This document shows, piece by piece, positions 1 through 46,840 of a stretch of 46,840 nucleotides of DNA. Source of the DNA: a virus. Lineage: Duplodnaviria > Caudoviricetes. Every line of letters starts with the position of its first letter. Positions within the stretch are counted from its first letter, which is position 1. The stretch is from positions 1 to 46,840 of the IMG/VR virus record IMGVR_UViG_3300049889_000013; one strand, written 5' to 3'. The notes beneath the pieces were generated by a model, which was not told the origin of the DNA, did not search any database, and worked only from the letters and a program-made list of their open reading frames with translations. A program made the position numbers and the translations under genes.

Positions 1-233
1 TTCCGCCCACAAGGCTCCATCCGCAACACATCGTCGCGCTTCGCAATCAAACCTTCGGAAAGCAAAAACCCCGCCGCCAATTCCTCATCATGCCCGGGCG
101 TGCGCATCGTGACACTAATCGCCCGTCCGCGAACGCGAATCTCGAGCGGCTCTTCAATCGCGAGATCGTCGGCTCCATTCGTCGCGCCGCTGGAGGTGAA
201 TCGCACGATGTCATCGAAATGCGCCGAGCTCAT
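1..233 (-). CDS. fdhD: Host formate dehydrogenase accessory sulfurtransferase FdhD, 5' part (runs off the window)
   Basis: Manual translation from ATG 233: [12 protein letters not shown]...[46 protein letters not shown] and TMRTPG.D.ELA.GFL.SEG are FdhD signatures. Confidence 0.9.
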
Positions 234-1747
234 GTATCCGTGATCGTAGCACGCGGGTTGATGTGAGATGTAATGAAAACGCGTTGTCGCGAAGACGCGC
301 GACCTTTCGCGGAGCGAATGGAATCAATGCCTTCTTCGCGAGTCTTCGAATCTTCGCGTCTTCGCGATCGCGCATTTCGATGATGGGAAAGCGTTCCCGG
401 CAGGGGTCGAACCTGCAACCTTCGGCTTCGGAGGCCGAAGTTGATCAGCTGATCACCGATCAGTTTATCCGCCACAACCTCTACGGTCGGCGCGACTTCG
501 CTTTTTTTTTCGCCCTGTAGGGTCAGGTGGGCGCGCTGCGCGCCTACCCCGCTGCGCTGCGCGCCATGCGTGCCCGTCGCGAGCTGGTGCTGCGCGTCGC
601 GCTGATCGGAAGGAACGGCCGGCAGGCCGTCGATCGCCTGCTGTTCATCGTGGAGCTGAGGGTGCATGTACCGCGCCGTGAGCCGGATATCAGAGTGACG
701 GGCGAGCTGCTGCACCGTCTTCATCGTCGCGCCGGGGACCGAGCCCAGGAGCGTGATGTAGGTGTGCCTGAGTGAATGGAAATCAGCGAAGCCGGCGGCC
801 GTCTCGTAGTCGATGCCGGCGGCCGCCAGATCGGCTTTGATCATCAGGTAGGCGCGCTCCGGGATCCTGAACACCGCAGCGCCGGCGGGCTTCCCCTCCA
901 GCCACGCGCTTAGTCGACCGGCTAAGTCGGCGCGGATGATCACGACGTCGAGCCGGCGGTGCTTGCTGCAGGCGGCGGTGACTGTGATCGTCGGCTGCTC
1001 GCCCAGGTGGAAGCTCTCGGGCGTGAGGCTGGCCAGCTCGCTCTTGCGGAGCCCGCTGTACGCGGCCGTCAGGTAGAGCATTTCCCGATCGGCCCCGCTC
1101 ATGCAACGAAAAGCAACGCCGGCCACGGCCGCGGCCAACAACTTCGACAGTTCGCGGGGGGCAAGCGCCCGTCGAGTGTGCCTTGGATCCGTGGCGGCGT
1201 TGTAAAGTTCCATGTCTCGCAGCGGGTTCTCATGCGCGCGGCGGATCGTGGGCCGCGCCAGCCAGCGGCAGAATTGCTTCAGCGCCTTGAGGTACTTGTT
1301 GCACGTCTCCAGCGACCAATCCTTCTCCAGCCGGAGATCGGCGACGGCGAGCTGTACGGCCTCGGCTGTCACGTCAACAACCCTCCCGAGCTCGCAGGCC
1401 TGGCAGATCAGCTTCACGCGCGAATGCACGCTCTTCGCCTGCCGGGATGTGATCCCGCGGGCGATCATCCACGCGCGATAGTCCTCGGCATGGCCGGGTT
1501 TCTCGTCGGTGCCGACGAGCTGCTGCTGCGCCGCCGCGGCGATCTTCTCGCTGCGGGCGTCGAGCTGGCCGAGCCGGTGCATGTCGAGCCAGTGGCTGAC
1601 CGACCGCGCCTTGCGCGCGGTGACCTCCACGTCGGCCGATGCGGTCTCGGTTCTGCGCTTCCTCGTCGTCGGGTGCCGATACGCAATAAGCCAGGGGTCG
1701 GTCGGCGCGCACTTCTTGCCACGCTTGAACACCGAGACACTGGGCAC
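230..1747 (-). CDS. int: Tyrosine recombinase/integrase (prophage form, reads through att)
   Basis: Catalytic motifs [32 protein letters not shown]. Likely start is GTG 1747 (MPSVSVFKR) after GGAGG; the ORF is open to 1837. Confidence 0.95.
287..367. repeat. Host REP-like inverted repeat
   Basis: TCGCGAAGACGCG (287-299) pairs with CGCGTCTTCGCGA (355-367), with further TCTTCG units between them. It lies outside the prophage. Confidence 0.5.
386..438 (-). repeat. att junction: displaced 3' half of tRNA-Arg(CCG)
   Basis: 53-bp direct repeat of 46736..46788 with 4 mismatches. The identical 20-bp segment CCTTCGGCTTCGGAGGCCGA (419-438 / 46769-46788) spans the anticodon arm. Confidence 0.95.
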
Positions 1748-1928
1748 TCTGTAGGGGAATCCTCCCAAATCTCCTGACGCTCCATTCCCTGTGGCGAGGG
1801 TTTTGAGCAGCTCGATCTGGATGTCCCCCGAACGCATGACAGCGGGAAACGTCCAATAGAATCAGCTGATCTCCAAAAAAAGCAGGCACTTGCTCAACCG
1901 CACCGCCGCCGGTGCCGATGCGCGTTAC

Positions 1929-2814: not shown

Positions 2815-3069
2815 CTATCGAGCAGCCGCCTTCTTGCGGGGCGGCGATTTTGCCTTCGGTCGAGCGTACCGCCGGCGGATCTCTTCGTAGCCGAAGCTCA
2901 TGGCCAAGCCGAGCAACTTGTTCAGCCCCGGTCCCGGCAGCTCGCCGTACACGTCCTCGTAGAGCTGCTCGCCCTGCTTTCGCAGCGGCTGGCCAAGCCG
3001 GATGAGCATCTCCTTGTCCACACCCATCGAGACCTCGGTGGGCGATTCACGTTTGGCCTTCGCGGACAT
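2815..3069 (-). CDS. Small basic candidate regulator
   Basis: GGAGG SD, MSAKAKRESPTEVSMGVDKEMLIRL..., Lys-rich tail; paralog of 2256..2699. Confidence 0.6.
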   Translation of the reverse strand: MSAKAKRESPTEVSMGVDKEMLIRLGQPLRKQGEQLYEDVYGELPGPGLNKLLGLAMSFGYEEIRRRYARPKAKSPPRKKAAAR

Positions 3070-3096
3070 CTGACCTCCAGTGGTGGCACGTGCGCG

Positions 3097-6844: not shown

Positions 6845-7270
6845 CTACTTCTTCGCCGGCTCGGTCGGCTTTTTGTCGAGGAAAAATTGCCCGTCGCCCT
6901 TGGTCTCAAACACTGCCACCAGCTCTTTGAAGCCTCTCTGTAAGCTGAGTGGCAGAGGCCCGGCGTCCTCGCCGTTGTCCGGCGCGATGCGGCCCCATGC
7001 TGTCTTATCGGCTTCCGCCGTAGGAACGTTACCGCTGCGCTCGCGCCGAAAAGTTGTCGCGGCGGTGTGGGCGTGGGCGATGACGTGATCGGCCAGCATC
7101 TGGCGCTCGACGAGCCCCTTGAAGCCGACGGGGTCGTTGGCTTTGAGATGTCCGTAGAAGCGCCGCGCGTATCCGGCCACCAGCTCGTCTTCGAGCGCGT
7201 GACGCCACGCGGGGAGTGCCGGCGGCTTCTTCGCCGGCGGGTTTTTCTGCTGCTGCTGCTCTGCCATCAC
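6845..7270 (-). CDS. Hypothetical protein
   Basis: Coupled to the giant-gene stop (GTGATG); GGAGG SD. Confidence 0.65.
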   Translation of the reverse strand: MMAEQQQQKNPPAKKPPALPAWRHALEDELVAGYARRFYGHLKANDPVGFKGLVERQMLADHVIAHAHTAATTFRRERSGNVPTAEADKTAWGRIAPDNGEDAGPLPLSLQRGFKELVAVFETKGDGQFFLDKKPTEPAKK

Positions 7271-10200
7271 TTGCCTCCGGGGGTTGCGGGGTAGCGGGAT
7301 TTTCCACCTATGCCACGGGCTATATTAACCATCTGCGCCATGAGCACACGCAGCCGCTGCCGCTTGACCTCGGGGGTGAGGGCGTCCGATTCGTACACGC
7401 CGGTCATTGCCGCGCGCAGGTCCTTCAGCGCCTGGCCCGCGGCTTTGATCTGATCCGCTTTCTGCAGCACGTCCCGATTGCGCGCGATGTAGCTCTTGAG
7501 CTGATCGCCGCTGTAGTGCGGGATCGAGGCCTTCACACGGTCGAGGCGATCGGAGAGCGCGTAGAAGTCCGCCAGGCTCTGCGCGCTCGAGGGCTCCAGC
7601 TCGCGACCGAACATCATCTGCAGGCCGGGGATTGATTGCTTCCAATCGTCCGCCGGCGGCGGCGTCTTGGTGATGCCGGCGAGCGGGCGGAACACACCAT
7701 CGTCGATCGACTTGACCACCGAGCGCCCGAAGGTGCCGGTGTAGCCGTAGATCAGGTGATCGATGAGCAGCGGGCTCATGTTCAGGTGCTTCCCGATGAA
7801 CTTGGCGGTTTCGCTGGTGAAGCGCTTCTGCTGCAGCTCCGGCTCCAGCCGCTTGAGATCGTCGGGCACGATCGGCCGCTGGTTGAAGTAGTCGTAGTTG
7901 GCGGCCACTTCGTACAGAGGCTTGAGCGCGGTCACCATGTCGAGCGCCATGTTGAGCGCTGCGCCGGGCGACGGGATCAGCTCCTGCAGGAGCTTGGGAT
8001 CCTCATTCAGCGCGGCTTCGATCATCGCCGGCAGCGCGGTGCCGAGCACGAAGCCCCACTCCTGGGGCTTGCGGAAGCGAAACCAGCTCCGCGTCGTCTT
8101 GGGATCGCCGATCGGGAAGAGCCAATAGCCCTGCCGTTCGTTTGCGCGCTCCTGGTAATCGGGATTGTCTTTGCAAAGGTAATTGAGCAGCAGAGACATC
8201 GCCACCAGTGGCAGCGAGCGGATGAACATCGTGCCCGGCCGGTTCTTCACGTTGCGCGCGAAGGTGTCGGTGCCCTGGATCATCGCGTTGAAGAACGCGC
8301 GCAGCTTGCCGACGTCCTTGGCCCACGATCCGCCGCGGTTGAAGTCCACCGTCACGTCGCGCGCAGCCAGAGACGCGCGGGCGAGGCCTTCGCGGTTCAC
8401 GCCCTCCTTCTTCAGCGCCCGGGCAAACTCGCCGAGGCGCGTGGCGTCGTCGGATCCGTTGCTCAGCGCCTCCAGCAGATCGATGAATCGGGCCGGCATG
8501 TTCAGCCAGTGCTTCGCGCTGCCGAAGGCCGAGCGGTAGAGCTTGTGCATCTCGCGCTCGATCGGATCGTCCATCGAGCCCACCATGCCGGCGTGCGAGG
8601 CCTTGGAGTGCAGGTAGAGCTGGTAGGTCTCGTCCCGGCGCAGCAGGTGATAGAGCCCGACGGCGTTGTCCACGATCGGAAGGAAGCCATAGCGGGTTTG
8701 CATCCGCGCCGTGATCGTGTCGCGCATCACGTTGCCGGTCACAAAGTTGAGGTACAGCGTGAAGCCGCGGCGCATGATGCTCGCCGGCAGGGTCAGCACC
8801 CGGAGGATCAGGTTCTTGGAGTCGAGCGACGTCGTGCGCGCGGTGACCGCGTCGTAGAGCGCCGGATCGTGCAGCTGCCACACGTGGATCTTGCCGGCCA
8901 CGCGCAGGGCGATCTCCAGGTCCCGCGGGTTGTGCGCGATCGGCCGGAAGATCGTGAACGTCTGCTGCAGGTCGATCTTCGGCGGGATCGTGCCGCCAGG
9001 TCCCGACGGCTCGAAGTCGAGCGGATCCGCGCCGGCGGCGATGAGGTACTTTTTGATCTCTTCGAGCTGGCCACTGGTCGGCGCGATCGGCCGGGTGATC
9101 TTGTCGGCGTAGGTGTAATCCTTCCCTTTGCGGATCAGCTCGAACGCCAGCAGCCCGGCGCGGTTGCCGTCCACCAGGTCCACCATCCGGCGGATGTTTC
9201 GGATCATCGCCCCGATCGGGCGCTCGATGCGTCGGCCGCTGCCGCGGATCTGATGCAGCGCCTTGCCCTTGTCCACAAGGCCCGCGGAGCTGCCGTGCTG
9301 TTCCATGTAGTCGAGCACTCGGCTCCAGCGCACGTAACGCTGGTTGAGCGCGATCACAGCGTCGATCTGCCCGGGGGCGAAGAAGCCGCTTTGCTCCATG
9401 TAGCTCTTGAGCACGGCATGATTCCAACGCCACACACCCTGCGCCGCGGCGCGGAACGCCGGCGACTCATACTTGGCGATCGTCGCCTTGGCCTGATCCC
9501 AGGAGACGCCGAGCGGGCCGGCTTCGGGATCGACGACGTGCTTCAACTCGCGCACGTGTTTGCCCGTCGTCGGATCCACCGTCGCGGCCTGTGTGTACAG
9601 CTCGTCGGCGCGCTGCGCAACCAGGTAGGCCTCGAAGTTGCGGATCTGCTTTGCCGAGCGGATCCCGTTCTCGCGCATCACCGGCTCGATGCCCTTGGCC
9701 ACCGTCCGGCCGTCGCGATCGCGGACGCCGTACTTCACCCAGGAAAGCACCATGCCCGGATTGCCCGCGTTGAGCCGCGCCGCCACGTAGGCGTCGGCGT
9801 CGAACGTGTCGGGGAGCTGGCCGCCGCCGATGATGTCCTTGCGCATCCAGTCGAGCGGGGCAAAGTGATCGGCGATGTGGCGGTAGAGGTAGCTGTAAGC
9901 GCCCTCGTTGCCGCGCGGGCTGCGGATCGTCGGCCCGTCGTCGTCGAAGTTGATCTGACTCTCGAGCTTTTGGACGGGATCTTGCGCAAGGTACTGCGCG
10001 TACATTCCCTGCAGCTCTTTGATTGCCTGCCAAAGCTCCGGCTCTTTGAGCGTCTCGCCCTCGAACCAGGTGGAGTAACCCGGCGCCAGCGTCTGCGCCT
10101 GCACCGGGTCATACATGAAGATCCGGAACCACTCGGCCACACCTTCCTTGCGGACCTGCGCCTTGGTGTAGCTCTTGCGCGACGTGCGACGGCCGAGCGG

Positions 10201-13200
10201 CAGCAGCTCGGTGTCGAACGTCGCCGGCGGCTTGAGCCCGGTGATTCGATCGTCGATTGCGTGGCCCACTTCGTGCGCGAGCACCGCGATCTGATTGGCC
10301 ACGTGCTGCCGGATCAGCTTGTTCCAGTAGTACCCCAGCGCGCGCCGCTTGGGGCCGGCGAGGCGGCGCTGTTTGCCGACGGCGACGGCCAGCTTGAGCT
10401 TGTTGATCACGAAGTCTGTGATCTGCTGGCGGCTCATCGTCTGCGGTTGATGCTTCGCGCTCAGCACCGCCGGCGGGATGTTGGGCGTCGTCGCGTGGAG
10501 CTGGAGCTGCGGAGGCAGCTGGTCGACGATCGACGTCGGCAGCTCCGCCGGCTGGCCGCCACCTTCCGGCGGCGTGAAGAGATTGCGCTGGCTGCTTTTG
10601 CCGAACAGCGCTTTGACGGTCTCGATCTTCCCGCGCGGGACGTACAACCCGCTCACCACGTTCTCGCCCTGCTGCATCGTGACGTAGTGATTGCGCAGCG
10701 CCTGGGATCCGCTCTTGCCGTAGATGGCGTCCTGAATCACCGGGAGAGGGACCGCGTCCTTGGGGCGCGTCAGCAGTTTGCCCTGCAGGATCCCGTAGGT
10801 TTCGCCCGTCGTGCTTTCGACGGTGTGGATCTGCAGCGGGTGGTTGGTGTCGAGTTCGATCGACTGGCGGATCATGCCGCGGTTGCGCCGCGCCACTTTG
10901 CCGCCGGTCTTTGCCGACTCGATCGCCTCCAGCTCCTGCCAGCGCGCGTGTGCCTTGTCGTAGATCTCGTTGCCGAGCTGGTGCGGCAGCATCATCAGAT
11001 CATTCTGGAAGTCGCGCCAGCTCAGATCGTCCTCGTCGAGCTTGCCCTGGTGGAGAAGAAGATCCTGCTGCTGGCGCGGCAGTGCCCGCACGGTCTCGTT
11101 GATCGCGCGGTGCCACGTCGAGCTTTCCATGTCGAAGTCATTCAGCGCATCGCTCTCCGCGCCGGCGTCCTCTTGCCCTTTGCTGATGGCGCCCAGGCTC
11201 TTCATGCGCGCGGCGATCGTCGCCTGAAACTTGCGCTCCCCGGCGATCGGCGTGAAGATGGTCAGCGCGGCCGGGCTGGTCACCTGGTTGGCGCGGTCGA
11301 CGCGGCCGAGGGACTGCTTAAACTCCTTGCTGTCCCAATCCAGATCGAGCACCACCATGAACCGCCGGCCACTGCCCAGATCCTGCAGGTTGATCCCGGT
11401 CGTGCCCGCGGGGCTGATCACCGCCACCTTGCGCTTGCCGGATTGAAACTCTGCATTCTGCTCGATGCGCGCCTTGGGCGACGTCGCGCCGACGATCGCC
11501 GCCACGTTCTTCTCCCCGAACGCGTCGAGGATCTTCTGCAGGGGAGAGGGGCTCTTGTCGCGCCCGGTCGCTGCGAGCTGCTGGCGGATGGCTTTGAGGG
11601 CCGCGATCGCGTCGGGCTGATCTTCCCACTTCTGGATCTCACCTTTGGCGTCCTTCACCGCGCGCTGGGTGGGGATCGCGTCGAGCACGGCGCCGAGGTT
11701 GCCGCCCTGGCCGGTCAGATGCGTGTCACTGACGCCGAGGATCTTGAACACCACCTGCTCGCCGCGCGCGAGGGCCGCCTGCGCTTCGGCGATCGCCGCC
11801 GGCAGCCGGTACTCCACCAGCAGCCGCTTGATGAAGAAGATCGCCTGGCCATCCGGCCGCGGCGGGCTCCACAGCTGGCCCTTTTTCTTGGGGTGTGGCC
11901 ACTTCGAATTGTTCACCAGCTTCCGCGCCGACGCGTACAGGCGGATCGCGTGGTTGAGGTTCTCGGCCATGACGTCGTAGAGCGCCAGCTGCTCGGGCGT
12001 GACGGCCGCCTCGCGCATGTTGAATTCGAACCCACCGCGCCAGAAGTCGAGCGAGTGGTACGCGTTGTCCATTTTCAGCTCGCGCATGAGCTGCTCGATG
12101 ATCGGCGTGGCGATCGACTCGCGCCAGCTCCCCGCCTTGCTGATGCCGGTGGCGTTCTGCAGCCAGCCGTCGAAGGTCGACGTGCTGAGCTTCTCGGCCA
12201 TCTTCGGCGGATCCCACAGGCGCAGCCCGTACATGAACTTCAGCGCGGCGATGTCCGACGCCGGCGTGGCCGTCATGTAGACGAAGTGGCGCTGGCCGCT
12301 CGGCAGCAGTGCTTCATGCAGCAGCTCCAGGGCATTGGCGCGCTGGGTGTCGCCTTCGAGGTTCGAAAGCAGGTGCGCTTCGTCGACGATCACCAGGTCC
12401 GGGCGCCAGTCGGTGAAGGGCTTGAGGTACTTCACCAGGTTGAAGCTGTCGCCGAGCATCACCGTGGGCGCGTTTCGCGTCTGGTACTGCGTGAGGCCCG
12501 CCGGCTCCATGCCCGACGCGTTGACGATGCTCAGGCCCTGCGCGGCCAGCGGATCGAACGTCGCGCGCTGCTCGACGGTGAACGTGTTGATCAGGTCGGC
12601 GATGTTCTGACGGTTCTTGGTGAGAACAAGAATCTTGCGCTTGCCGGAGAGGCCGGCGAGGCTGCGGTAGATCTGGTCGGCGATCGTCGCGCCGATGACG
12701 CGCGACTTGCCCACGCCGACGTCGTCGGCGATCAGCGCGCCGGCGTTGGCGACGTGGATCCGGTACCCGATCGCGGCCGCTTGATCGCGCTGGGGGTCGG
12801 AGACGTCGGCGGCGGCGCGGGGGTCGAGCTCGTAGCCGGCGAGGTCCCCGGCGCGGACGCCGGCGAGGGCTTTTGATTCGACGAGAAGTCGGGGGTGATG
12901 ATGTCCCCGCCGCCACGGAGGAAGCGGAACATAAGGGCTAACCCGGTCGCTGCGGAGTGCGTCGAGATAATGCGCGGACTGTCCTGGTCCGAGCCACTCA
13001 GGTAACCCATCGCGTCGTCCAGGCTCGTCAGGAAGGCCTGCTCCCGATCCTTCACTTCCGGGAACCACGCCGGCGTTACCTGATCCTGGTCGAACGTCAG
13101 AACCTCCGACCAGCTCTCCCCCAGGTGCGGAGCCGTCCCCGGCCCCTCCTGTTGGAGTCGCTCCAGCACGTCCTTGAGCCGCGCTTGCCTTCCGAAGTCG

Positions 13201-16200
13201 ATCACTGGCCGCCTCTCGTTTGAACGGGGGAAGCTCGCCGATGGCGCTCTTCACGTCCTCATCGGCTGCCAGGTCGCTCCACAGCTTCGACAGCAGATCG
13301 GTGAAGCCGCTGTCCTCGACCGTGTAGCCCAGGTCCTTGAGGATCCCGCTCAGATCCGAGCGTACCCCTTCGGCCCACCGGCGCAACATCTTGTCGCCGG
13401 CTTCGGCCTGTTGTTCAAGGTGAAAAGTGGCAATCCGGGCAAGACGTTCCGCCACCGCGGGATCTTTGAGCAGCTCGGCGGGGTTGATCGATTGATCGCC
13501 GCCGGCGGTGGCCATGAACGTCGGGCCCTGGCCTGTGATCCGCCGCGGCATGTGCAGCGCGCCGCGCAGTGTCTGACTCATCAGCTCGGGATAGCTGAGC
13601 ATGTCGCGCAGCTCGTCGAGGGTGGAGAAGTACTTCTCGGGCCCGCCGCCGAAGAGACCGCCGCCCGCGCGCTCGAGCTTGCCGGCCGTCACGGGCTTGC
13701 CTGCTCGATCGGTGGGGACGTCGTTCTCGAACGCCGCGGCCCATGCTTTCGCCGGCGTCACTTGTGAATCGGTCGCGAAGGCAAAGGTGGTCTCGCCGGG
13801 CCGGAAGTTGCGCGCGTGATCCATGTAGGCGCGGATCCGCTCGCGCCAGCCCACGCTGTTGTCGTTGACCAGGCGGCGCAGCAGCAGCCGCGCGCGCTTC
13901 ATGTCCGACTCGGTGATCCGATCGGCCACCATCAGCTTCTGACCGTCGGCCGCCTCGCCCTTGAGCCAGGCATCCAGCGGGGCCTGCGCCGCGCGCCAGC
14001 GGAGGAAGCCGTACAGCGCCTGCTGCAGATCTGCGGTGAAGTCCCATTCGCGCCCGAGCGTCTTGGGGTAAACGATGCCGAAGAGGTTGCCGGTGATCTT
14101 GTTGGCCGTCGCCGCCGGCAGGTTGTCGAACACGCCGACGTCGGGAATCGCCACCGCCTGCAGGATGCGCTCAATGAGGCGCTTGCCGTCCTCGCTGAGC
14201 ATCCCGGTCTCGGGGTGCTCGAAGCGCGCGTACTCCTGTTTGGTGAGAACCTCGCTCTTGATCAGCCAGCTCTTGAGTTCGGCCACTTTCGCCGGTGTGC
14301 TCATCACTTCGCGGATCGATTCATCGTCGCCGAGCACCGACTGCAGGCGCTCCAGCGTGCCCGGGCTGTCGAGCAGGATCCGCGCGCGGCTGGCGGCGTC
14401 CATCGCGCCGCTCATCTCCTGCGTGCGTCCCTTCTGCAGCACCCGCACCAGCACGCGCATTCGCGCGGGGTCGTTGGTCTCTTCCTGGATCACGCGCACG
14501 AGAACCGGATCCTCGACGCCGGCGGCGTCCTCTTTGCGGATCCCGAATCGCTCGGCCGAGCCGATCACCAGGCTGCGGAAGTTGGTCGCGCGCGTGCTCT
14601 TGCCGTCGCCGCGCATCACACCGCCCATGCCGTACACGCGCTGGATGACCATCGCGCGCGAGTTGCCGCCCATGACGCGGCCGTTGGGCAGGATCATGGG
14701 CGGGCCGTTCACCGGGTCGGGGTTGTCGGTCAGCAGCCACACCGGGTTGAAGTCGAGATCGTTCTGCTGGACCTTGGCCTTCTCATCCTTCGAGTGCTGG
14801 TAATCGCGCTCCTGGACGTTGGGCGGGTACTTCTCGCTCGGCTTGAAGGTGTGCGCGTCGTGCGAGGGGATCAGATCCTTCGCCGACACGATCGCGTAGG
14901 CCGACGGCACCGGGTCGGTGGCGGTCTCGATCGGCTGCGCGCGGCCCACCAGCTGCTTGATCGCGGGGAGCTGCTCGACGGGCTCGATGCCCAGCGCCTT
15001 GCGCGCTTTGGCCTCCAGCTCGGGCGTGAGTTTGATGAAGCGGCCGGCGCGGCTGACTTTGATCTTGCCGTCGGCGCGGTGGGTGAACTGATACGGGCCC
15101 TGATTGACGATCTTGGATGCGCCCGGCTCGGTGATCGCCGGCGGGATCCACGTGGGCGTGCCTGTCGGGTTTCCCCCAGGTGGGAGATCGCCGGCGGTGG
15201 CCCTCACGCCAGCCGCCGGCTTCTCGTCGTTTAGTAGCCGCCCTTGCCCTTGCCGCTCTTCTTCGAGCCGCCCTTCTTCGCCGGCGGTCGAGCCGAGTTG
15301 CGCTTCGTCGTTGCCTTCGACTTCGCGCCCATCATCTTGGACTTGTTGGTTGCTGCCATGGTTGGTGCCTCCTTTCTCGGCGGGCAGTGTATCACCCGCG
15401 CGGGCCGGCTCCAGTCGCTCGACGGTTTCTTTTGCGCGCGCCGCCAGCTCGCCGGTTTTCACCGCTTCACCCTTGAGCTGATGAAGGAGATCTTTGTTGC
15501 CGGCCAATCCACTCTCGAGATCGGCAGCGACGGGCGCCTTCTCCGGCAGCCGGTTCTGCAGCTGACCCTTGAGCTGGTCGTAGTGCTTCAGCGCCTCTTT
15601 GAGCGGGAGGCGCGTGCCGTCCGGGAACACCACGGCCTCGACGTCGTCGGGGTGGACGTAGCTCTTCCCCTCGCTGGTGACTGCGATGTGGTTGACGAGC
15701 CCCTTCGCCGGCGTGCCCCGGTTGGTACCAGGCTTGAGCACAACCGCCACGGGGAGTTCAGAGGATCGTCCCACGGCGTAGGTGATGGCTGTAGAGGGGG
15801 TGTCGGAACCGAACCCGCCCGCTGGCACAAGCTCAGCGTCAATATCGCCAGAAAGGCGAGAAGGATGAATCCCGTCGCGCGCGATGAGCTGCAGATTTCG
15901 GGCGTCCGTGCCATGGATCACTTCTCCGGGTTTGACCGCGCGCATCAGGCCGGCCTTCTGCTCGGCGCGGTTCTTGATCATCGACGTGGGGGCCACGCCG
16001 GTCGGCTTCTTCACTTCCGTCTTGGTCGATCGCGCCGGCTCGGGCGCGCCGATCGCTTCGATGACGGGGACCTGTTTGAATCCGGCGTTTTGCGCCGCGG
16101 CGAGCTGATCCGCGCCGTCGAGCACCTGCCACCCGCCGTTGGCCAGCTTGCGAACGACGATCGGGGGGACCGCGTCCGATTGGTTCTCGGGGCCCGGTGC

Positions 16201-33365: not shown

Positions 33366-34075
33366 GCGGCGTGACGTGCTCCCCCGTTGCCTTCGCGCGC
33401 GAGCGTTCGAAGTCGATCCTTCGCCGCGGCCGGCTCGTCGCTCAGCCGGGCGATCGCCGGCGCGATGCGCTGACTCACGGCCAGGCTGATCGTGCTGCTG
33501 TCCAGATCCAGCTGGCGGCCGACGGCTTCGTTGGTCATCCCGCACAGGAAGCGCAGCTTGAAGATCGTGCGGTCCCGATCGTCGCGCAGCAGCTCAAGCA
33601 TCTTCTCCCGGAAGTCGGCCAGCTCAGCGCACAGCTCGGGCCCGTCCAGGTGTGTCGGCAGGTCATCCCACAGATCCTGACCGTCGGCGGTCGGTGCATC
33701 GCCACTGACGCGGTTGTCGGTGTAGCCGAGCCGACGGCCGTGGCGCGACACCCAACCGAGTGACCGCACCGCGGCTTTGATCCGCAGCCTCAGCAGCGCC
33801 GACGCGTACAGCGTGAAGGATGGGTTGCGCTCAGGCTTCCAGTCGGAGAGCAGATCCAGCAGCGCGAAGAACGCCAGCTGGTGCAGATCGTCGTCGTCGA
33901 GCTCTTCGCCGCGGAAATAGTAGCTGCCGCCGGCGAAGGCCTCCGAGCGAGCGGCGCGCTTGGCCAGCGGCATGTAGACCATGAGCAGCGCGTTGCGCGC
34001 GGCCCAATTCATCGGATCATCCCGAAAGTTGGTCCAGTGCGGACCCGCCTGCAGATCGAGCGTTTCAAAGGGCAT
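33362..34075 (-). CDS. Phage sigma70-family factor (FliA/WhiG-like)
   Basis: Region 2 ARNALL..Y.PL...DDL.Q....L......PER...F..YA...RI....RS..WVSR; region 4 HTH RDRTIFKLRF..GMT..AVG..L. Confidence 0.8.
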   Translation of the reverse strand: MPFETLDLQAGPHWTNFRDDPMNWAARNALLMVYMPLAKRAARSEAFAGGSYYFRGEELDDDDLHQLAFFALLDLLSDWKPERNPSFTLYASALLRLRIKAAVRSLGWVSRHGRRLGYTDNRVSGDAPTADGQDLWDDLPTHLDGPELCAELADFREKMLELLRDDRDRTIFKLRFLCGMTNEAVGRQLDLDSSTISLAVSQRIAPAIARLSDEPAAAKDRLRTLAREGNGGARHAA

Positions 34076-40206: not shown

Positions 40207-40243
40207 CAGCCGCGGCGAGCATGATGCTTGCCGCGGCTGTTTT
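40207..40243 (+). terminator. Intrinsic terminator between convergent operons
   Basis: CAGCCGCGGCGAGCA-TGA-TGCTTGCCGCGGCTG followed by TTTT. Confidence 0.8.
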
Positions 40244-40487
40244 AATTTGCGGGTTGTGTGGGCTTCACGTCAGGCGCTTTCGTCTGCAGGAAGCGCTTGC
40301 ACAGCTCGTCGAACGGCCGCGGCGTGATCCCGCGCTTCGCGCCGCCGCGGAGGATCTCTTCGGCGCGGCGAATGTTTACGGTCGGGCCGCCGGTGATCAG
40401 GCCGTATTGCCGGCAACTGTCGAGCTGCAGGAAGAACTCAGCGTGATCGACGGCGTCTTGCCAGGTCTCTTTGCTCCAGCGGCCCAT
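40242..40487 (-). CDS. Hypothetical protein
   Basis: TGATG coupling; MGRWSKETWQDAV... Confidence 0.6.
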   Translation of the reverse strand: MGRWSKETWQDAVDHAEFFLQLDSCRQYGLITGGPTVNIRRAEEILRGGAKRGITPRPFDELCKRFLQTKAPDVKPTQPAN

Positions 40488-40819
40488 CAAGATCCCCCGG
40501 CCGGCGGCGGTGGCGACTTGTCTGTCAGCTGGCCGATCGCCTGATCCAGCGCGTCCAGATAGGGCCCTTCGCCGGCGGCCGTCGTGCGGAACATCTTCAG
40601 CGCCTGCAGCACGGCCGCGTGAGTCTCGGCGTTCATCAGCAGGCTGCAGAGCCACACTCCTTGCGCAGCGCCAGCTCTCCCGACGAGCGCGTCCGCCAGC
40701 TCGATCGCCTGCACCGGCTCCATAACAACGCCCGTGCCCAAGGCATCAAGCACGACCTCGCCCTTTGCGTTGTTGCTGACCGACACCGCGCCGCCGGCGG
40801 GATCTGGTTGGGTGACCAT
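40487..40819 (-). CDS. Hypothetical protein
   Basis: TGATG coupling; AAGGA SD. Confidence 0.6.
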   Translation of the reverse strand: MVTQPDPAGGAVSVSNNAKGEVVLDALGTGVVMEPVQAIELADALVGRAGAAQGVWLCSLLMNAETHAAVLQALKMFRTTAAGEGPYLDALDQAIGQLTDKSPPPPAGGS

Positions 40820-42660
40820 CACTTTCCTTTCTTCTTCGGGGCCTTCTTCTTCGACGTCGGCTTGCACGTCATGTTGTGGATCTGCTCGGCCGCCGGCGTT
40901 CCGGTCAGCTCGTTGCCGCTGTCCACCATGTGATTGCCGCCGGGGATCTGGCAGCACGGGTTGTTGGCCAGGAAGTTCTCGATCGACTTCACCGCGGCGG
41001 CGATCTTCGGCTTCTCGGTCCCCGTCGCGCGCTTCAGGTTCTTCTTCAAGCCGTTCAGCTCGATGTGTGCGGCGGTGCGGATCGCGTAAGCGCGTGACGT
41101 GTAGCCAGTGTCGGTCACGCTGACCGGGCTGCTGGATCCGCCCTGGTGAATGTGCCTGTCGTGCCCGAATCGCCATAGGCCATCGACATTGCTTTTGATC
41201 ACGCGCACGATGACGTGATCGCTCCCCTTCGAGTGGATCCGCACGTTCTCGACCTGCTGCACGTAGACGCCGTGATCATTCACGCCGGGATCATCGATCA
41301 TCAGCTTCGGATCGATGTCCCTGGCCAGCAGATCCTTGATCGTGCGCTCGCGCGTGTCGTCGAGATTGTTGTGCTCACGATCGAGCGCGACGCCGTTCAC
41401 GAATGCCTCGGCCGCCTCGCGCGACTTCTTGCCGGCGTGGTACATCCGCGCCCAGTAGAGGTTTGGGAAAATGTCGAATTGCGCCGGCAGCTCCACATCC
41501 TCTTTCTTCGCCAGCGTGGTGATCGAGCTGTGCAGGTTCATCGCCCACTGAAACCAGCTCTGCTTTTGTCCGCTGTCCGCCTTCATCTCCGGGATCCACT
41601 GCTGGAGAGGACCGCCGAGCCTCCAGCCAGCGCCCGGTGAATCGTTCGGGCCCTTCTCCATCGCGTGCGCGAGCGTGCTGGAGCCGACGGCATAACCGCC
41701 GGCCATGTTCGCCTCTGCAACCTCCGCTGGCTCGTGTCCGCCCGCGTCGATCGCCGCCTTCCGCTGAACGACGGCCGGGCGCTTCCACTCCAGGAGGATC
41801 TCGCTGTCGCCGCTGCCGATGATCCAGGTCTCTTCATCGCGCGAGACGTGCAGGCCGGCCAGGTCAACATCTTCCGGCGCGATCTTGTGCGAGCCCGGGA
41901 TCTCGTCGAAGCGGAGGTACTGCGGTTTGTCCCACTTCTCGATCGGGATCAGCGGGCGCAGGATCGCGCTCGTGAGGAAGTCGCTGCCGCGGGTGAAATT
42001 GCGCAGCGCGATGCACACGTGGGGCTCGGGCGGCTCCTGGCCGGCTTCGCCACTGCTGATCATCAGCGGCGGGCTGTTCAGCACCGCGCGGAAGGGTGCC
42101 GGCTCGTCGTGCGTGCGCGAGGCGATCAGATTCTGCCGGCTCTCTTCGACCAGCTCGGCCGTGAGCTGCAGATCCTCAGGCGCGAGGGCTCCAGATTCAG
42201 ATAGCAAGACGCGCGCGGTCCACTTCTGCCCTTCGGTTCGCGGCGGCAATGTAGAGATGTCGTTGACATCTTTACTTTCCGGTTGCGCCGCGGCGGGCTC
42301 GCTCTCCAGCACAGGCAGCGCGATCGGCAGGCCTCCGTTGCTCGGCGGCGGTGCGATCTGCAGCGGGAAGAGATCCTGCTGCGGATCGTCGGGCTCCATC
42401 AGGACCTCACGCGCTTCGCGCTCGAGGATCTTCTTTCGACCCTTCGCCTGATTCAGCTCCTTCTGCAGCTCGGCCTCGCGCGCGACGGCCTTCTGCCACT
42501 CGGCGACTTTGGCCGCGTGCTTGAGATGCTTCCGCAGCGTCATGCCTTCGATCCCCTGCTCGGCGTAGAACTGCTGGATCTGCAGGTTCACTGCCTTCTG
42601 CGCCTCCATGCCACGATTTACAAACGCCTCCAGCGTCTGCAGCTCATTGGTCTCGGTCAT
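40819..42660 (-). CDS. Large hypothetical protein (~613 aa)
   Basis: GGGAG SD, TGATG coupling; N-terminal coiled coil and QQDLF motif; no family recognised. Confidence 0.7.
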   Translation of the reverse strand: MTETNELQTLEAFVNRGMEAQKAVNLQIQQFYAEQGIEGMTLRKHLKHAAKVAEWQKAVAREAELQKELNQAKGRKKILEREAREVLMEPDDPQQDLFPLQIAPPPSNGGLPIALPVLESEPAAAQPESKDVNDISTLPPRTEGQKWTARVLLSESGALAPEDLQLTAELVEESRQNLIASRTHDEPAPFRAVLNSPPLMISSGEAGQEPPEPHVCIALRNFTRGSDFLTSAILRPLIPIEKWDKPQYLRFDEIPGSHKIAPEDVDLAGLHVSRDEETWIIGSGDSEILLEWKRPAVVQRKAAIDAGGHEPAEVAEANMAGGYAVGSSTLAHAMEKGPNDSPGAGWRLGGPLQQWIPEMKADSGQKQSWFQWAMNLHSSITTLAKKEDVELPAQFDIFPNLYWARMYHAGKKSREAAEAFVNGVALDREHNNLDDTRERTIKDLLARDIDPKLMIDDPGVNDHGVYVQQVENVRIHSKGSDHVIVRVIKSNVDGLWRFGHDRHIHQGGSSSPVSVTDTGYTSRAYAIRTAAHIELNGLKKNLKRATGTEKPKIAAAVKSIENFLANNPCCQIPGGNHMVDSGNELTGTPAAEQIHNMTCKPTSKKKAPKKKGK

Positions 42661-43037
42661 CACTTGCTCCCGCGGCCGCGGCCGCGCTTGGTGGTTTCGT
42701 TGACGGGTTTGTCCGCTGCCGGCGGGAAGGGATGGCGGCCGAGCGTGAGCTGGCCGATCGCTTCCTCCTTTGTGCCTTTGAACTCGTGAAAGTCCACGCT
42801 GACCCAGCGCTGCAGCCGCTCGATGTAGAGCAGCTCCTGGATCACGCGTCGATTGCAGCCTGGGCAGATGTAGCCGCGGGCGCGGCGGTATCGATTGCCT
42901 CCATCGACCCACGGCACATCGAAGACGTTCTCGGGCGGAAGCGGCGCGCCACACACTTCGTTGCCGCAGTAGTGTTGGTCGATCGACGTCAGGGGCGGAA
43001 CATCACGGACGTCTCTGGGCATCGGGGGGATTGACAT
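42660..43037 (-). CDS. Zinc-ribbon hypothetical protein
   Basis: AGGAGG SD; CGNEVC...CPGC. Confidence 0.65.
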   Translation of the reverse strand: MSIPPMPRDVRDVPPLTSIDQHYCGNEVCGAPLPPENVFDVPWVDGGNRYRRARGYICPGCNRRVIQELLYIERLQRWVSVDFHEFKGTKEEAIGQLTLGRHPFPPAADKPVNETTKRGRGRGSK

Positions 43038-43059
43038 CGGGCCTCCTGTCAAAGAGGCC

Positions 43060-43088
43060 ATACTATGCCGCGGCATAGTCACTCACAA
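43060..43088 (-). promoter_or_regulatory. sigma70-like promoter with perfect operator palindrome
   Basis: TTGTGA-17 nt-TAGTAT; ACTATGCCGCGGCATAGT perfect 18-bp palindrome at 43062-43079. Confidence 0.7.
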
Positions 43089-43813
43089 GCCGGAAGCGCC
43101 GACGAGCCCATCAGCCAATAGATCCGCCGGCAGCTTGGGCACTTGGCAGCGTAGATGACGAAGCCGCGGCCGCTGGCAGAGAACGGGCGGGACTCGGCCG
43201 AGAAGCTTTTGTAGCTGAACGGCTGCGTGGGATCCGGCACATCGCACACGTGCGGGATCTGGATCCACTGCGGCGGGACCTTCGCGCGCACGAAGCCTTT
43301 GAAATGCCACGGCCACACTTCCGCCTCGGCGATGTCCTGGCTGATCGCGGCGCGGATGATCTTGTTGGGCCGCGTCTCCTTCTGGCCGCGGGGCCCGAGG
43401 CGGAAGCGCAGCTCGATCGTCTGGTGACAGGTGAAGGTCAGCGCCCGCTCTTCGCCGTCGGGTGTTGTGAACAGAAACGCGACGGCGGGTCCGCTCGGAT
43501 CCGCCAGCGTGATCTCATCGCAGAAGTAGCCGTCGGGGAACGGCTCGACGTGCAGCCGGTAAATCAGCTCGCACAGCGCGCCGATGTAGATCTCCAGCGG
43601 ATGATCGTTCGCCTCCGCGACGACGTCGCCGGGCATCGGCCGCGCGAGATAGATCCACACCTTCTGTTGGTGAGGGTGTGACATCGTCACTCGGTACGGC
43701 AGCCGGTTCACCAGGAGAAGCGCGTCGGTGGGATTGCCGGCGACAGCATCGACCAGCAGAAGCATCAGCTCGTGCCAGTCGATCCGCCACAACAGGCGAA
43801 GGTCGTTGCTCAT
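43079..43813 (-). CDS. Hypothetical protein, C-terminal zinc ribbon
   Basis: 244 aa; HVC...CPSC. Confidence 0.6.
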   Translation of the reverse strand: MSNDLRLLWRIDWHELMLLLVDAVAGNPTDALLLVNRLPYRVTMSHPHQQKVWIYLARPMPGDVVAEANDHPLEIYIGALCELIYRLHVEPFPDGYFCDEITLADPSGPAVAFLFTTPDGEERALTFTCHQTIELRFRLGPRGQKETRPNKIIRAAISQDIAEAEVWPWHFKGFVRAKVPPQWIQIPHVCDVPDPTQPFSYKSFSAESRPFSASGRGFVIYAAKCPSCRRIYWLMGSSALPACE

Positions 43814-43881
43814 TCTCTACCCCGAAGATCTGCGCGAGGCTCATCGGCTCGCCGCCGCGCGGCTGCGGAGCGTCGAGCTGC

Positions 43882-44640
43882 TCAAAGAGGCCACGGACCA
43901 CTTCCTCGTCGGTGCTGCGTTCCATCGCGTCCACCCTTCCTGCGGATCGGCCGGCCGGTGTCGAAGAGCCCCGGCTGTTGCGGATCTGCGTAGATCCTGA
44001 ACCCAGGCGGGTACCACTCTTCGAGCATTCCGCGCGGCCAGTCGCGTTCGTTGTCGGCGCCCTCCGGGCGCTCGAAGCGAAACCGGGGACTCTTGTACGT
44101 TGTTCGGCAGAGTCGGAAAAAATCATGCTCGTCTCTGCAGGGAATCGGTTGCAGCTTCTCACTCGGCCCTGATCGGTCTACGACGCAGACCATGCCGCGG
44201 TTTAGTTTAAGCGCACCGGCGCGGTGCAGTCGCCAGGAAAGCATCCGCCAGTAACCCGCCGGCCCGGTGTGCTCAGCCACGCGCGGACCCCAGTTGTCGG
44301 AAGTGACCAGGAGCACGCGGTGGATCCAGTCGCGATGCACGACCTCGATCACGCGCGACTCGGCGTCGGGCCGAAGCGCCAGCCCGTCGCCGTGCACATG
44401 CTGCTGGAGCTGGCGGCGCCCGATCAGATCCTCGGCCATTTCCCACAGCCGATTGTCGAACGGACCCACCGGGTTGATCGGCGACTTCGTGATCGCCACG
44501 TGCACCAGCTCGCGCGGGCCGTCGAGCTCGCGCCTCACGTGCCCGCACGTCTCCCACCGGGTGAATCCCCGGTTGAAGAGCTGGCGGAAGGTGGCCGCGT
44601 GCTGCAGGGCCAATCCCAAGCTGACATTTTGACAGGTCAT
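43882..44640 (-). CDS. Family X polymerase-like protein, catalytic residues degenerate
   Basis: CGHVRR, NWG....HTGPA, IP..DEHDFF......SP..R follow the PolX palm/thumb layout; the acidic triad is not seen. Confidence 0.6.
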   Translation of the reverse strand: MTCQNVSLGLALQHAATFRQLFNRGFTRWETCGHVRRELDGPRELVHVAITKSPINPVGPFDNRLWEMAEDLIGRRQLQQHVHGDGLALRPDAESRVIEVVHRDWIHRVLLVTSDNWGPRVAEHTGPAGYWRMLSWRLHRAGALKLNRGMVCVVDRSGPSEKLQPIPCRDEHDFFRLCRTTYKSPRFRFERPEGADNERDWPRGMLEEWYPPGFRIYADPQQPGLFDTGRPIRRKGGRDGTQHRRGSGPWPL

Positions 44641-45464
44641 TGCGATTTCCCAATAGGAGCCGTTTTAAGCCCCGCGCCGCTGCCGGGGCATAGATGAGGG
44701 GTCAGCGTCTCTTCGTGCGTGGGCGACCCCCTGCAACGCGGCAGAACGACCTTTTTGGCGCGTGGGCCTGCTGGCCGACGGGATTTGACCCTCGGGCCGG
44801 GGTTGGTGGCGGCGTACTCCCTGGCGATCCGCTCGGCGGCGATCTCCCACCGGCCGCGGCGCTCGGCCGCTTCGGGGACCGGGATCACCTGGCCAGCTCG
44901 AGAGTCGGCCGGGAACGGGATCAGCTGCATGGGGTCGTGTGCCCCCAGGAGCGTGCGGAGGGTGACCGACACGCCGGGGTTGCTGGCGGTCCATCGTTTG
45001 GTGATTGGGCCGGCGGTGATCTGCTCGTCGCGTTCGAGAAAACCGCGCAAGGCCAAAACATCGAACAGCGCTTTGACGGCGTTGTCCCGATCGGGCTTGC
45101 GCTGGCAGAAGCCTCCGTCGACCTCGCCGGCGGCGGGATCCGGATCGTTGGGCAGCGGCCAGTAGAAAACCACGTGGGCGACGATCGGCCCGCGGATCGG
45201 CACCAGCTCCTGCCGCTCCTTGATCCGCTCTTCGTACCAGCCGCGCGCACGCTTCAGCGCCTCGGAGTCTCGAATCGTCGGGATCCGCTTGCCGCCCTTC
45301 CCGAACCTCCAGCCCAGGTCCTTGTCGTGATGCGTCGTCGTTGGCGGCACGCCGTCGAGCTCGAACGCCACCATGCCCTCGACCGCCGGCGCCAGCTTCG
45401 GCCGCATGTGCGAGCCGACGTAACTCAATCCCATCTTCTTCCGCGTGGCCTGGTCGAGCTTCAT
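44637..45464 (-). CDS. rusA: RusA-family Holliday junction resolvase
   Basis: KPDRDNAVKALFDVL...F..RDEQI....ITKRW; GPI...V.FYWP. Confidence 0.8.
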   Translation of the reverse strand: MKLDQATRKKMGLSYVGSHMRPKLAPAVEGMVAFELDGVPPTTTHHDKDLGWRFGKGGKRIPTIRDSEALKRARGWYEERIKERQELVPIRGPIVAHVVFYWPLPNDPDPAAGEVDGGFCQRKPDRDNAVKALFDVLALRGFLERDEQITAGPITKRWTASNPGVSVTLRTLLGAHDPMQLIPFPADSRAGQVIPVPEAAERRGRWEIAAERIAREYAATNPGPRVKSRRPAGPRAKKVVLPRCRGSPTHEETLTPHLCPGSGAGLKTAPIGKSQ

Positions 45465-45781
45465 CGACCCCCCGCCCGCTCAAACTCCTGGAAGGCAGCA
45501 TCGACGAGCTGCTCAGCCGTGACGTTCGGATCGTCCACCATCTGCTCGATCGACGGCGCGAGCCGCTCATCGAGAAACTCATGGCAGCATCCGCAGTAGC
45601 GCGCGGTGAGGTCGTTCGTGTTGAAGCTGACCATCGAGCACTTCCGGCAGCAGATGCCGAGCCGGTTGTCCAAGCGCCCCAAAGTGACGATCAGGTATCG
45701 CGGTTCAACTTTGAGGATCATGCCAACTTTGACCGACACGCGGCCGCCGACGGTGGGCGGATCCGGGATTTGCACTTTCAT
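45461..45781 (-). CDS. Zinc-finger hypothetical protein
   Basis: I.CRKC.MVSFN.ND...RYCGCCHEF. Confidence 0.65.
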   Translation of the reverse strand: MKVQIPDPPTVGGRVSVKVGMILKVEPRYLIVTLGRLDNRLGICCRKCSMVSFNTNDLTARYCGCCHEFLDERLAPSIEQMVDDPNVTAEQLVDAAFQEFERAGGR

Positions 45782-46380
45782 CAGGTCTCCTTGGGGTAAT
45801 GAAGTACTCGCGCCCTCATCAGGCGCATCGCCTGGAACATGCCCGCGCGGTACGCGTGCGGACGCTGAGTGAGCTGGTCGGGTTTGATCGGATCGAGCAC
45901 CGCGGCGATCTCCGCGTCACGCAGAGTCGGCAGCAGGTTGCGCTTCACGCAGATCTCGCTGATGAGCTGCTCAAGGGTGGACTGGCAGCCGTTGCAGAAC
46001 GTGGTGCCCGGGAACTTCTCGCCGGCACACTTCGGGCAGACCTGGCTGTTGAGCGAGAGGCGCAGGATCGGGATCGACAGCGCGGCCTCGCGCACCATCA
46101 CCTGGCCAATCTTCAGCGCGTGCTGGTCGCCGGGGAGGATGAAGCGCACCGCGCCGAGCCGCTTGAGCGCGGCGAGCACCGCTTCGGCGTAACCATTCTC
46201 GATGCCACGGTACAGGTGCAGGGCGGTGTCTTTCGGCAGCGCACGCCAGCAGCGCGGGCAGAACGTCTTCGCCCGCGCTTTGAGCTGGCCACACCCGGGG
46301 CAGACTTCCGATCGCAGGCTGGTGATCAGGTTGATGGCTGTGAGCTGTTCCCACAGCGGAACATCGTTGGGGCTCTTCAT
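45781..46380 (-). CDS. Protein with two repeated C4 zinc-finger units
   Basis: SL.SEVCPGC...K...KTFCPRC and SL.SQVCPKC...K...TTFCNGC. Confidence 0.7.
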   Translation of the reverse strand: MKSPNDVPLWEQLTAINLITSLRSEVCPGCGQLKARAKTFCPRCWRALPKDTALHLYRGIENGYAEAVLAALKRLGAVRFILPGDQHALKIGQVMVREAALSIPILRLSLNSQVCPKCAGEKFPGTTFCNGCQSTLEQLISEICVKRNLLPTLRDAEIAAVLDPIKPDQLTQRPHAYRAGMFQAMRLMRARVLHYPKET

Positions 46381-46586
46381 CTTCTACCGCCCTTCTGATG
46401 ATCTATTTGGAAAGCAGCAGTAGTGATGTATCTGCGCGATTTGGGGATAACTCCGCGGAGCGATCGCGCAACTGTTATGCCGTGGCATAGTTGTACGCGC
46501 AGCCGAATCTGCGCGGTCTGTGGAGAAGTTGACGCATCGCTGGCGCCGGCGCTCAGGATGACGACAGGGCTGGCGCAGGCGCTCAT
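46377..46586 (-). CDS. Possible short ORF
   Basis: GAGGGGAG SD and ATGA overlaps at both ends, but weak codon bias and it contains an operator copy. Confidence 0.3.
   Translation of the reverse strand: MSACASPVVILSAGASDASTSPQTAQIRLRVQLCHGITVARSLRGVIPKSRRYITTAAFQIDHQKGGRR
46475..46490. promoter_or_regulatory. Operator palindrome copy
   Basis: TTATGCCGTGGCATAG, upstream of the 46380 operon. Confidence 0.6.
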
Positions 46587-46788
46587 TTGCTCCCCTCGGC
46601 CAGTTTGGCCAGGTGAGCGAGCACCTTCTGGATCTCTTCGGCGGTCGGCGCAGCAGGTGGGTTAGGGTGCGCTGCGCCAGGCGCTGCGCGCGGCGGCCCC
46701 GCCGGTGGCGGGTTTAGCGGTAAGTCGTTGTCAGAGGAAAGCGTTCCCGGAAGGGCTCGAACCTTCAGCCTTCGGCTTCGGAGGCCGA
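46583..46788 (-). other. Detached 3' end of int (rejoined in attP)
   Basis: In the int frame it reads through the att core as [21 protein letters not shown]...PTAEEIQKVLAHLAKLAEGSK-stop (TGA 46585-46583). Confidence 0.7.
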
Positions 46789-46815
46789 CGCTCTATCCAA
46801 TTGAGCTACGGGAAC
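46742..46815 (-). tRNA. tRNA-Arg(CCG), CCA not encoded
   Basis: GTTCCCG/CGGGAAC acceptor stem, GCTC/GAGC D-stem, TCGGC-CTCCGAA-GCCGA anticodon arm, GAAGG-TTCGAGC-CCTTC T-arm. Confidence 0.97.
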
Positions 46816-46840
46816 GTGAATGGCCTTCCGCTGACTTTAT

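Follow-up and report, generated by a model that had tools for sequence, protein, structure and literature searches.

What becomes of an integrase whose gene runs through the very site at which the phage inserts itself is the question raised by the stretch of DNA analysed in this study (46,840 nucleotides, hereafter the window). The window was found to hold a tailed prophage of 46.35 kb, complete and flanked by a little host DNA; terminase, portal and major head genes are present, a tyrosine integrase lies at the left end, and the insertion target is tRNA-Arg(CCG). The integrases nearest to that of the window come from Tepidisphaerales, the best genome matches being Fontivita pretiosa B-254 (53%) and a Tepidisphaeraceae MAG, and these integrase and prophage relatives suggest a host from Tepidisphaerales. 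The cultured Fontivita pretiosa carries a 48.2 kb prophage that is syntenic with the window and shares 65-79% identity with it in the terminase, portal and capsid genes, though its att orientation is opposite to that of the window and the tRNA there faces int. Two other genes were noticed in the virion part of the window: a giant protein of 3836 aa (7267-18777, minus strand) at the end of the virion genes, kept in Fontivita and in L050, with weak PHROG matches to a helicase and an unknown family, and a phage-encoded sigma-70-like factor (33362-34075, minus strand) just upstream of the terminase large subunit, also kept in Fontivita.

The integrase frame, read from 1837 down to 230 on the minus strand, contains no internal stop and none before or within the att repeat. 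Pfam Phage_integrase (PF00589) spans aa 225-394 above its cut-off, and the residues R264, K292, H354, R357, H381 and Y390 occupy columns that are invariant or nearly so among the homologues; together with the fold, this R-K-H-R-H/W-Y set identifies a tyrosine recombinase. A start at the internal GTG at 1747 was rejected, as the residues upstream of 1747 are conserved. The att repeat measures 53 nt (386-438 = 46736-46788), with mismatches at 401, 406, 415 and 418, and its perfect block of 20 nt at 419-438 is the anticodon stem-loop of the tRNA-Arg(CCG) at 46815..46741. Two of the mismatches form a compensatory pair in the T-stem, indicating that the phage copy is kept as a working half of the tRNA; no significant hairpin was found 3' of the window tRNA (z -0.4). 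The codon of the catalytic Tyr390 lies at 670..668 (minus strand), and the att core begins 77 codons further on, at codon 467. When the prophage ends were rejoined by virtual excision, an integrase of 534 aa resulted at every possible crossover position in the repeat. Past the perfect core there are 62 residues on the host side and 61 on the phage side, but as the first 11 are a near-identical peptide encoded by the tRNA, only 51 and 50 residues truly differ. The attR form ends at a TGA overlapping the fdhD ATG at 233, the attP form at a TGA (46585-46583) overlapping an ATG at 46586, and it is only in the circular attP form that the tail exon becomes part of int. The int gene therefore runs through its own tRNA-Arg insertion site, and integration swaps a helix for host-derived sequence (Table 1). 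In these respects the original prediction was accurate: it had described an int without a stop that reads through the att core, 62 host-derived residues ending on the fdhD ATG, and a rejoined frame open for 61 phage residues that form a Pro/Ala linker and an amphipathic helix.

Table 1. Features of the window that bear on the integrase and its exchangeable tail
Feature	Position	Strand	Remarks
Start of host fdhD	1..233	-	
Tyrosine integrase ORF, integrated (attR) form	230..1837	-	535 aa
Host-derived tail of the integrated form	230..385	-	51 aa; non-conserved; stop overlaps fdhD start
attR repeat	386..438	-	3' part of the host's tRNA-Arg, displaced; perfect core 419-438; int reads sense
A9 run	502..510	-	read-through depends on it
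9-mer, two copies	535..564	-	535-543 and 556-564; candidate arm-type sites in coding linker
Catalytic domain	656..1165	-	aa 225-394; wholly upstream of att
Zinc-ribbon protein	45781..46380	-	first conserved gene after the tail; 41% identical in Fontivita
Intergenic control region (most likely)	46381..46582	.	palindrome at 46477-46488; likely spurious 69-aa ORF over it
Phage tail exon	46583..46735	-	50 aa + stop; Pro/Ala linker, then helix
N-capped amphipathic helix ending the attP-form integrase	46586..46648	-	conserved
9-mer, putative arm-type repeat	46669..46691	-	copies 46683-46691 and 46669-46677; inside tail linker
attL repeat	46736..46788	-	perfect core 46769-46788
Restored tRNA-Arg(CCG)	46741..46815	-	host 5' part + phage 3' part; compensatory T-stem pair change

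Since the read-through depends on a run of nine A, its length was a point on which the original prediction could have failed. A change of the run by one or two bases makes the frame stop at aa 451-457, before att; contigs spanning it carry no indel in three of three sequencing runs (X1, possibly the source sample, and X2 and X3, from other studies), and nine A can be accepted. One X3 contig of 223 nt aligns to 386-548 and differs there in four letters; one of the four is the phage tRNA variant at 418, and the contig runs on into the int side. It is a candidate for a natural attP junction, being a single contig of low depth (2.5) whose first 60 letters were not displayed.

Relatives were collected from 48 viral and 80 genome loci, and 128 integrase rows including the window were compared, L013 and L046-L048 having been dropped because the catalytic Tyr was unaligned. 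In 53 rows the frame passes through a tRNA or a part of one, in 17 it enters one, and in 16 it stops ahead of it; the remaining 42 have no detected tRNA, partly because contigs end. As the original prediction had supposed, homologues do not as a rule stop before att: the int frame is open from 60 nt past the Tyr to the tRNA in 71 of the 85 distinct rows with a tRNA within 600 nt, against only 10-22 of 85 for each of the other five frames and 16.7 expected from shuffles, in a set that contains close relatives and whose rows are not independent. Frame counts of this kind show that selection keeps the frame open through the tRNA fragment and the att arms on either side of it. Of the 251 homologous proteins in which the Tyr could be aligned, 205 extend at least 70 residues past it and 32 extend 40 or fewer. 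In the wider family of planctomycete tRNA-targeting integrases the tRNA is mostly read antisense (65 of 77 antisense rows reach it); this family has in common with the window the core family, the read-through of a tRNA and arm repeats inside the ORF, and differs in a tail of two helices with an invariant Trp, where the clade of the window has a single helix. Further searches added little: a single-protein scan of viral contigs gave no relative of the window integrase, a degenerate-motif scan gave 25 loci in metagenome contigs (only 2 of them family integrases) and two in viral contigs (one a family integrase, already in the set), and an order-wide genome search around Fontivita matched at least 3 of 141 genomes, one of them new, with part of the candidates scored. 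Some loci show peculiar outcomes. At L091 and L119 the integrated int frame crosses a tRNA-Cys and continues, still in frame, through over 500 codons of a host gene, and at L125 and L081 the 5' part of a tRNA-Ser appears duplicated and the full tRNA is read in sense.

For the phage side of the exchange, 16 elements from ten genomes were extended, and att pairs were sought in these, in the remaining loci and in the window. The search gave no far end for 7 of the 16; 13 elements were rejoined, leaving out L121 (duplicated int) and pairs resting on arm repeats only, such as L053. The prediction that the terminal helix is conserved held here too, as a conserved helix motif closes 12 of the 13 reconstructed attP forms: ten carry the two-helix motif with the invariant Trp, two (window and Fontivita) the single helix, and in the last, G004_L125, the two-helix motif is out of frame. 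The host-side tails range from 1 to 538 aa and have no motif in common, so that the overlap with fdhD is best read as an accident. Between window and Fontivita, 9 of the 14 helix residues are identical, three of these through a synonymous change, and the Fontivita tail was the top non-self match of the window tail among 64,849 six-frame segments, at an E value of only 15. Natural attP-form proteins in the databases end in a helix of the same kind as that of the window. Scored against a profile of the 10 other tails, the window helix was equalled by none of 1000 shuffles, compared with 195 of 1000 for its attR tail. When each of the 11 tails was left out in turn, seven, including window and Fontivita, exceeded all 1000 shuffles, three weaker ones were equalled by 8, 14 and 42, and P0206, from outside the clade, was not significant at 97; integrated-form tails gave 195-420 of 1000. 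The clade helix set and its register were chosen by eye, and its related rows are not independent. No homology between single-helix and two-helix tails was supported (hhalign probability 0.4%), and tail searches in Pfam, PDB and ESM Atlas gave no usable match for the helix. Three integrases that stop before the tRNA (L019, L023, L028) have at the C-terminus their own N-capped amphipathic helix, which might be a form of the tail that is always attached; when 13 early-stopping integrases were scored for the helix, L019 alone responded, and weakly (20/1000).

In a tree of 52 catalytic cores the window falls into a clade of 22 with a support of 0.999. The helix is carried by 10 of the 22 (eight natural proteins and two reconstructed forms), and together these ten cross the tRNA-Arg fragment in all six reading frames. 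The sense frames are used by the window, P0006, P0011 and P0160, by P0004 and P0012, and by P0125, and the antisense frames by Fontivita, P0007 and P0008, one each. The best tRNA frame was far above the second in every one of them; it was confirmed from the DNA for P0007, Fontivita and the window and read from the protein for the others. The spacings vary freely, from 35 to 103 aa between Tyr and tRNA and from 38 to 122 aa between tRNA and protein end, signifying that selection acts on reaching the helix and not on the linker or the tRNA-encoded peptide. As the tail survives changes of anticodon, orientation and frame, selection can be pinned on the 14-residue helix. Nine of the 22 clade members end 46 aa or less after the Tyr, and three are partial or have no far end. 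With these nine, and with 16 of 86 rows with a nearby tRNA in which the integrase stops before it, the tail is dispensable in some lineages. For P0020, the only one of the short members with DNA, two stops precede att, and its frame continues across the tRNA. As far as sequence comparison can establish such things, the geometry of the locus, its two isoforms, the selection of the frame and the conservation of the helix are established.

Predicted structures agree with a separate tail. The AlphaFold model of the integrated form in the window has confident N-terminal, core-binding and catalytic domains and a pLDDT below 50 from aa 428; three strands and a helix are predicted at aa 35-88, in the N-terminal, putatively arm-binding part. 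For P0011, a natural attP form, the model has a disordered linker at 375-459 followed by a helix at 465-485; the pLDDT of residues 461-480 is 87-94, and Foldseek matches the model to Xer, Tn1549 and lambda integrases. The model of P0011 thus shows a well-formed terminal helix, with the contact partner not given by it. Short repeats common to both att arms were detected in 12 of the 13 rejoined elements, at 1-44 of 200 shuffles per element. The arm 9-mer of the window is not significant alone in such GC-rich DNA (42/200 shuffles), and the same 9-mer stands in tandem at the tail-linker position in Fontivita. These repeats are putative arm-type integrase sites written inside the ORF, and one stretch of DNA would in that case be the 3' half of a tRNA, the recombination core, likely arm sites and protein code at once.

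From these data a mechanism can be proposed. With attP inside the 3' end of int, the circular phage would encode an integrase ending in the helix, and the prophage the same core with a non-conserved tail. The stretch of about 120 residues from the catalytic domain to the helix would serve as a flexible tether, its DNA doubling as the attP arms, and the helix would be a protein-contact module, for the integrase itself or a host factor, that helps to build the attP x attB complex. Only the free phage would then make an integration-competent enzyme; after induction the tail-less enzyme would excise, and the tail-bearing form would arise only from circles. By analogy with Mx8, a switch function of the tail exchange is plausible. 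On balance we judge it somewhat probable that the helix acts as a contact module required chiefly during integration, which would make the prophage enzyme biased towards excision or weak. The wider proposal, that the 14-residue helix is a built-in integration factor which is attached and removed by recombination in place of a directionality protein, and for which the lineage rewired its tRNA-Arg target through both orientations and six frames, is possible, and we hold it only tentatively.

Loss of the helix might instead lower the activity or solubility of the enzyme in both directions and so stabilise the lysogen, the direction being set by an unrecognised factor or by the level of integrase. 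A profile of excisionases, grown from two winged-helix domains fused to integrases and able to find Uoi of Mx8 at E 3e-9, bears on this. An excisionase-like gene adjoins int in 24 of 61 read-through relatives, in 6 of 14 early-stopping ones and in 23 of 33 for which no tRNA was detected; one lies in frame upstream of the helix-bearing P0007 integrase. The 24 read-through relatives indicate that the swap is not a general replacement for a directionality factor, and their coexistence with read-through, as in Mx8, fits a general change of activity. So do the altered specificity and varying efficiencies mentioned in the text of a review for Mx8 (PMC6070905), and BPs-type integrases, described as acting in both directions under level control (PMC3694055). 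On the other hand, neither the window nor the Fontivita prophage nor the partial element L050 gave a match to the profile, Pfam and PHROG scans of the window gave no excisionase either, and the title of the primary Mx8 paper, by which the tail is dispensable for excision, suggests a role specific to one direction. A general change of activity is accordingly unlikely in our estimation, if far from negligible. The original prediction had argued for a switch from the lack of an evident excisionase; the lack stands for the window, whereas the argument drawn from it does not, given the genes of these relatives and of Mx8. Separately, an excisionase-like winged helix fused to the integrase N-terminus, or in one frame with it, was seen at L001:9602-11662 and in P0005 and P0178.

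A tail acting as a degradation tag or stabiliser has its precedent in mycobacteriophage BPs, where att lies in the repressor gene (PMC3694055), and a tail of random host sequence might leave the prophage form open to proteolysis; this is improbable, as the last five residues of the attP forms are not conserved and mostly polar or charged, and the conserved element is an internal helix face, after which anything from none to more than 15 residues follow. Were the whole arrangement a neutral by-product, with GC-rich DNA keeping frames open and a helix arising by chance, the high GC content and the relatives that stop early would be expected; it is contradicted by the excess specific to one frame (71 versus 10-22 of 85), by the conservation of the motif and by its retention through six frames and two orientations, and we give it almost no credence. 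The open frame could lastly serve translational coupling or transcription control of downstream genes, and the original prediction had proposed in this sense that integration uncouples the genes at 46586..40242 from int and places them behind the tRNA promoter. ATGA overlaps do stand at both ends of the window, the tRNA points into the early genes, and no terminator-like site was found at 45700-46840. Against this, the overlap at the tail stop, real as predicted, opens a 69-aa ORF that has no Pfam or PHROG match and no counterpart in the Fontivita prophage, and the sequence past the tail stop differs among relatives. With a conserved, operator-like palindrome in the same place, the coupling was not borne out; nor is a read-in from the tRNA promoter a conserved feature, since the tRNA of Fontivita is reversed. 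We regard such a role of the open frame as very improbable.

Given that palindrome and an ORF without counterpart, the region 46381..46582, which is conserved as DNA in Fontivita with indels, is most likely a control region of the early genes, and the 69-aa ORF is likely spurious. The palindrome, ATRCCRYGGYAT, occurs seven times in the window against 1.08 expected, at 2710, 3100, 36115, 43065 and 46477 and, with one mismatch, at 44192 and 46202; some precede two small paralogs, others stand at the boundary between the divergent late and early genes or follow the int tail. Three sites served to define the motif, and independent support comes from two further perfect sites in the window and from four in the Fontivita prophage. 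The two small paralogs (2256-2699 and 2815-3072, minus strand), each behind a palindrome upstream of int, are also kept in Fontivita and L050, gave no match in Pfam or PHROG, and show feature matches below 0.9 to DndE-like clusters in the Atlas, which serve as a lead only; they are candidate repressors or directionality factors. DnaA-box-like 9-mers at 46442-46450 and 46519-46527 are conserved in position in Fontivita and not enriched across the window (6 vs 4.8). No replication initiator or helicase was recognised among the early genes of the window, and sigma-70 promoter scans were blank.

The reading of the helix as a module for integration is open to experiment, as the cultured Fontivita pretiosa B-254 has a complete syntenic prophage in which control of directionality by a C-terminal swap is testable. 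Integrases of this family that are annotated from host genomes carry the wrong C-terminus, and the attP form is the one needed if they are to serve as integration tools in planctomycetes. A published account of this integrase family, of its helix type or of the six-frame retention was not found in a search covering mainly open-access papers; a term search of the available text of a tyrosine recombinase classification (PMC8138268) met no mention of planctomycetes, Myxococcus or SSV, and the available text of PMC12884075 mentions neither tails nor planctomycetes.

The closest known system is Mx8. Its attP lies inside int, which acquires a new 3' end and a changed specificity after integration, according to the review text (PMC6070905), and the Islander report describes Mx8 and SSV integrases as extending across attP (PMC4383910); the dispensability of the tail for excision is taken from the title of the primary Mx8 paper as cited in PMC11610982. 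As described in these sources, Mx8 is like the window in having a tyrosine integrase, a tRNA-type target, an attP past the catalytic domain and a new C-terminus on a core that is kept; in the window, likewise, attP falls within the int coding sequence downstream of the Tyr, and integration gives a new 3' end with the core intact. The two differ in that Mx8 has the excisionase Uoi directly upstream of int, where none was found in the window, and appears, on a weak match, to read its tRNA fragment antisense, whereas the window reads it in sense and its clade in all six frames. Mx8 Int (AF396866) gave no meaningful match to the clade profile, to both tail profiles or by BLASTP, and no phage record matched P0001 at E 1e-5. 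The SSV1-type systems resemble the window in having att within int and a target split on integration, and the available text describes their int genes as interrupted (PMC5861418). Their int is partitioned into N- and C-terminal fragments, however, whereas the window keeps its core in one ORF and exchanges only the tail; its active site, with the canonical R-K-H-R-H-Y set, has none of the substitutions of the SSV type. In BPs, according to the text seen (PMC3694055), attP lies inside the repressor gene and recombination removes a C-terminal degradation tag; a protein C-terminus is rewritten there as in the window, but the protein is a repressor and the tail a tag, in place of an integrase and a conserved helix, and the family of the window has no conserved terminal residues of the degron kind. 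The principle is already known from Mx8, and the six-frame retention and the type of helix, which we did not find in print, may be new. Judged on its sequences, the system of the window is real, conserved and Mx8-like, set in an unrelated integrase family with a tail of its own, and it turns what had been the curiosity of one phage into a comparative system with a minimal conserved element.
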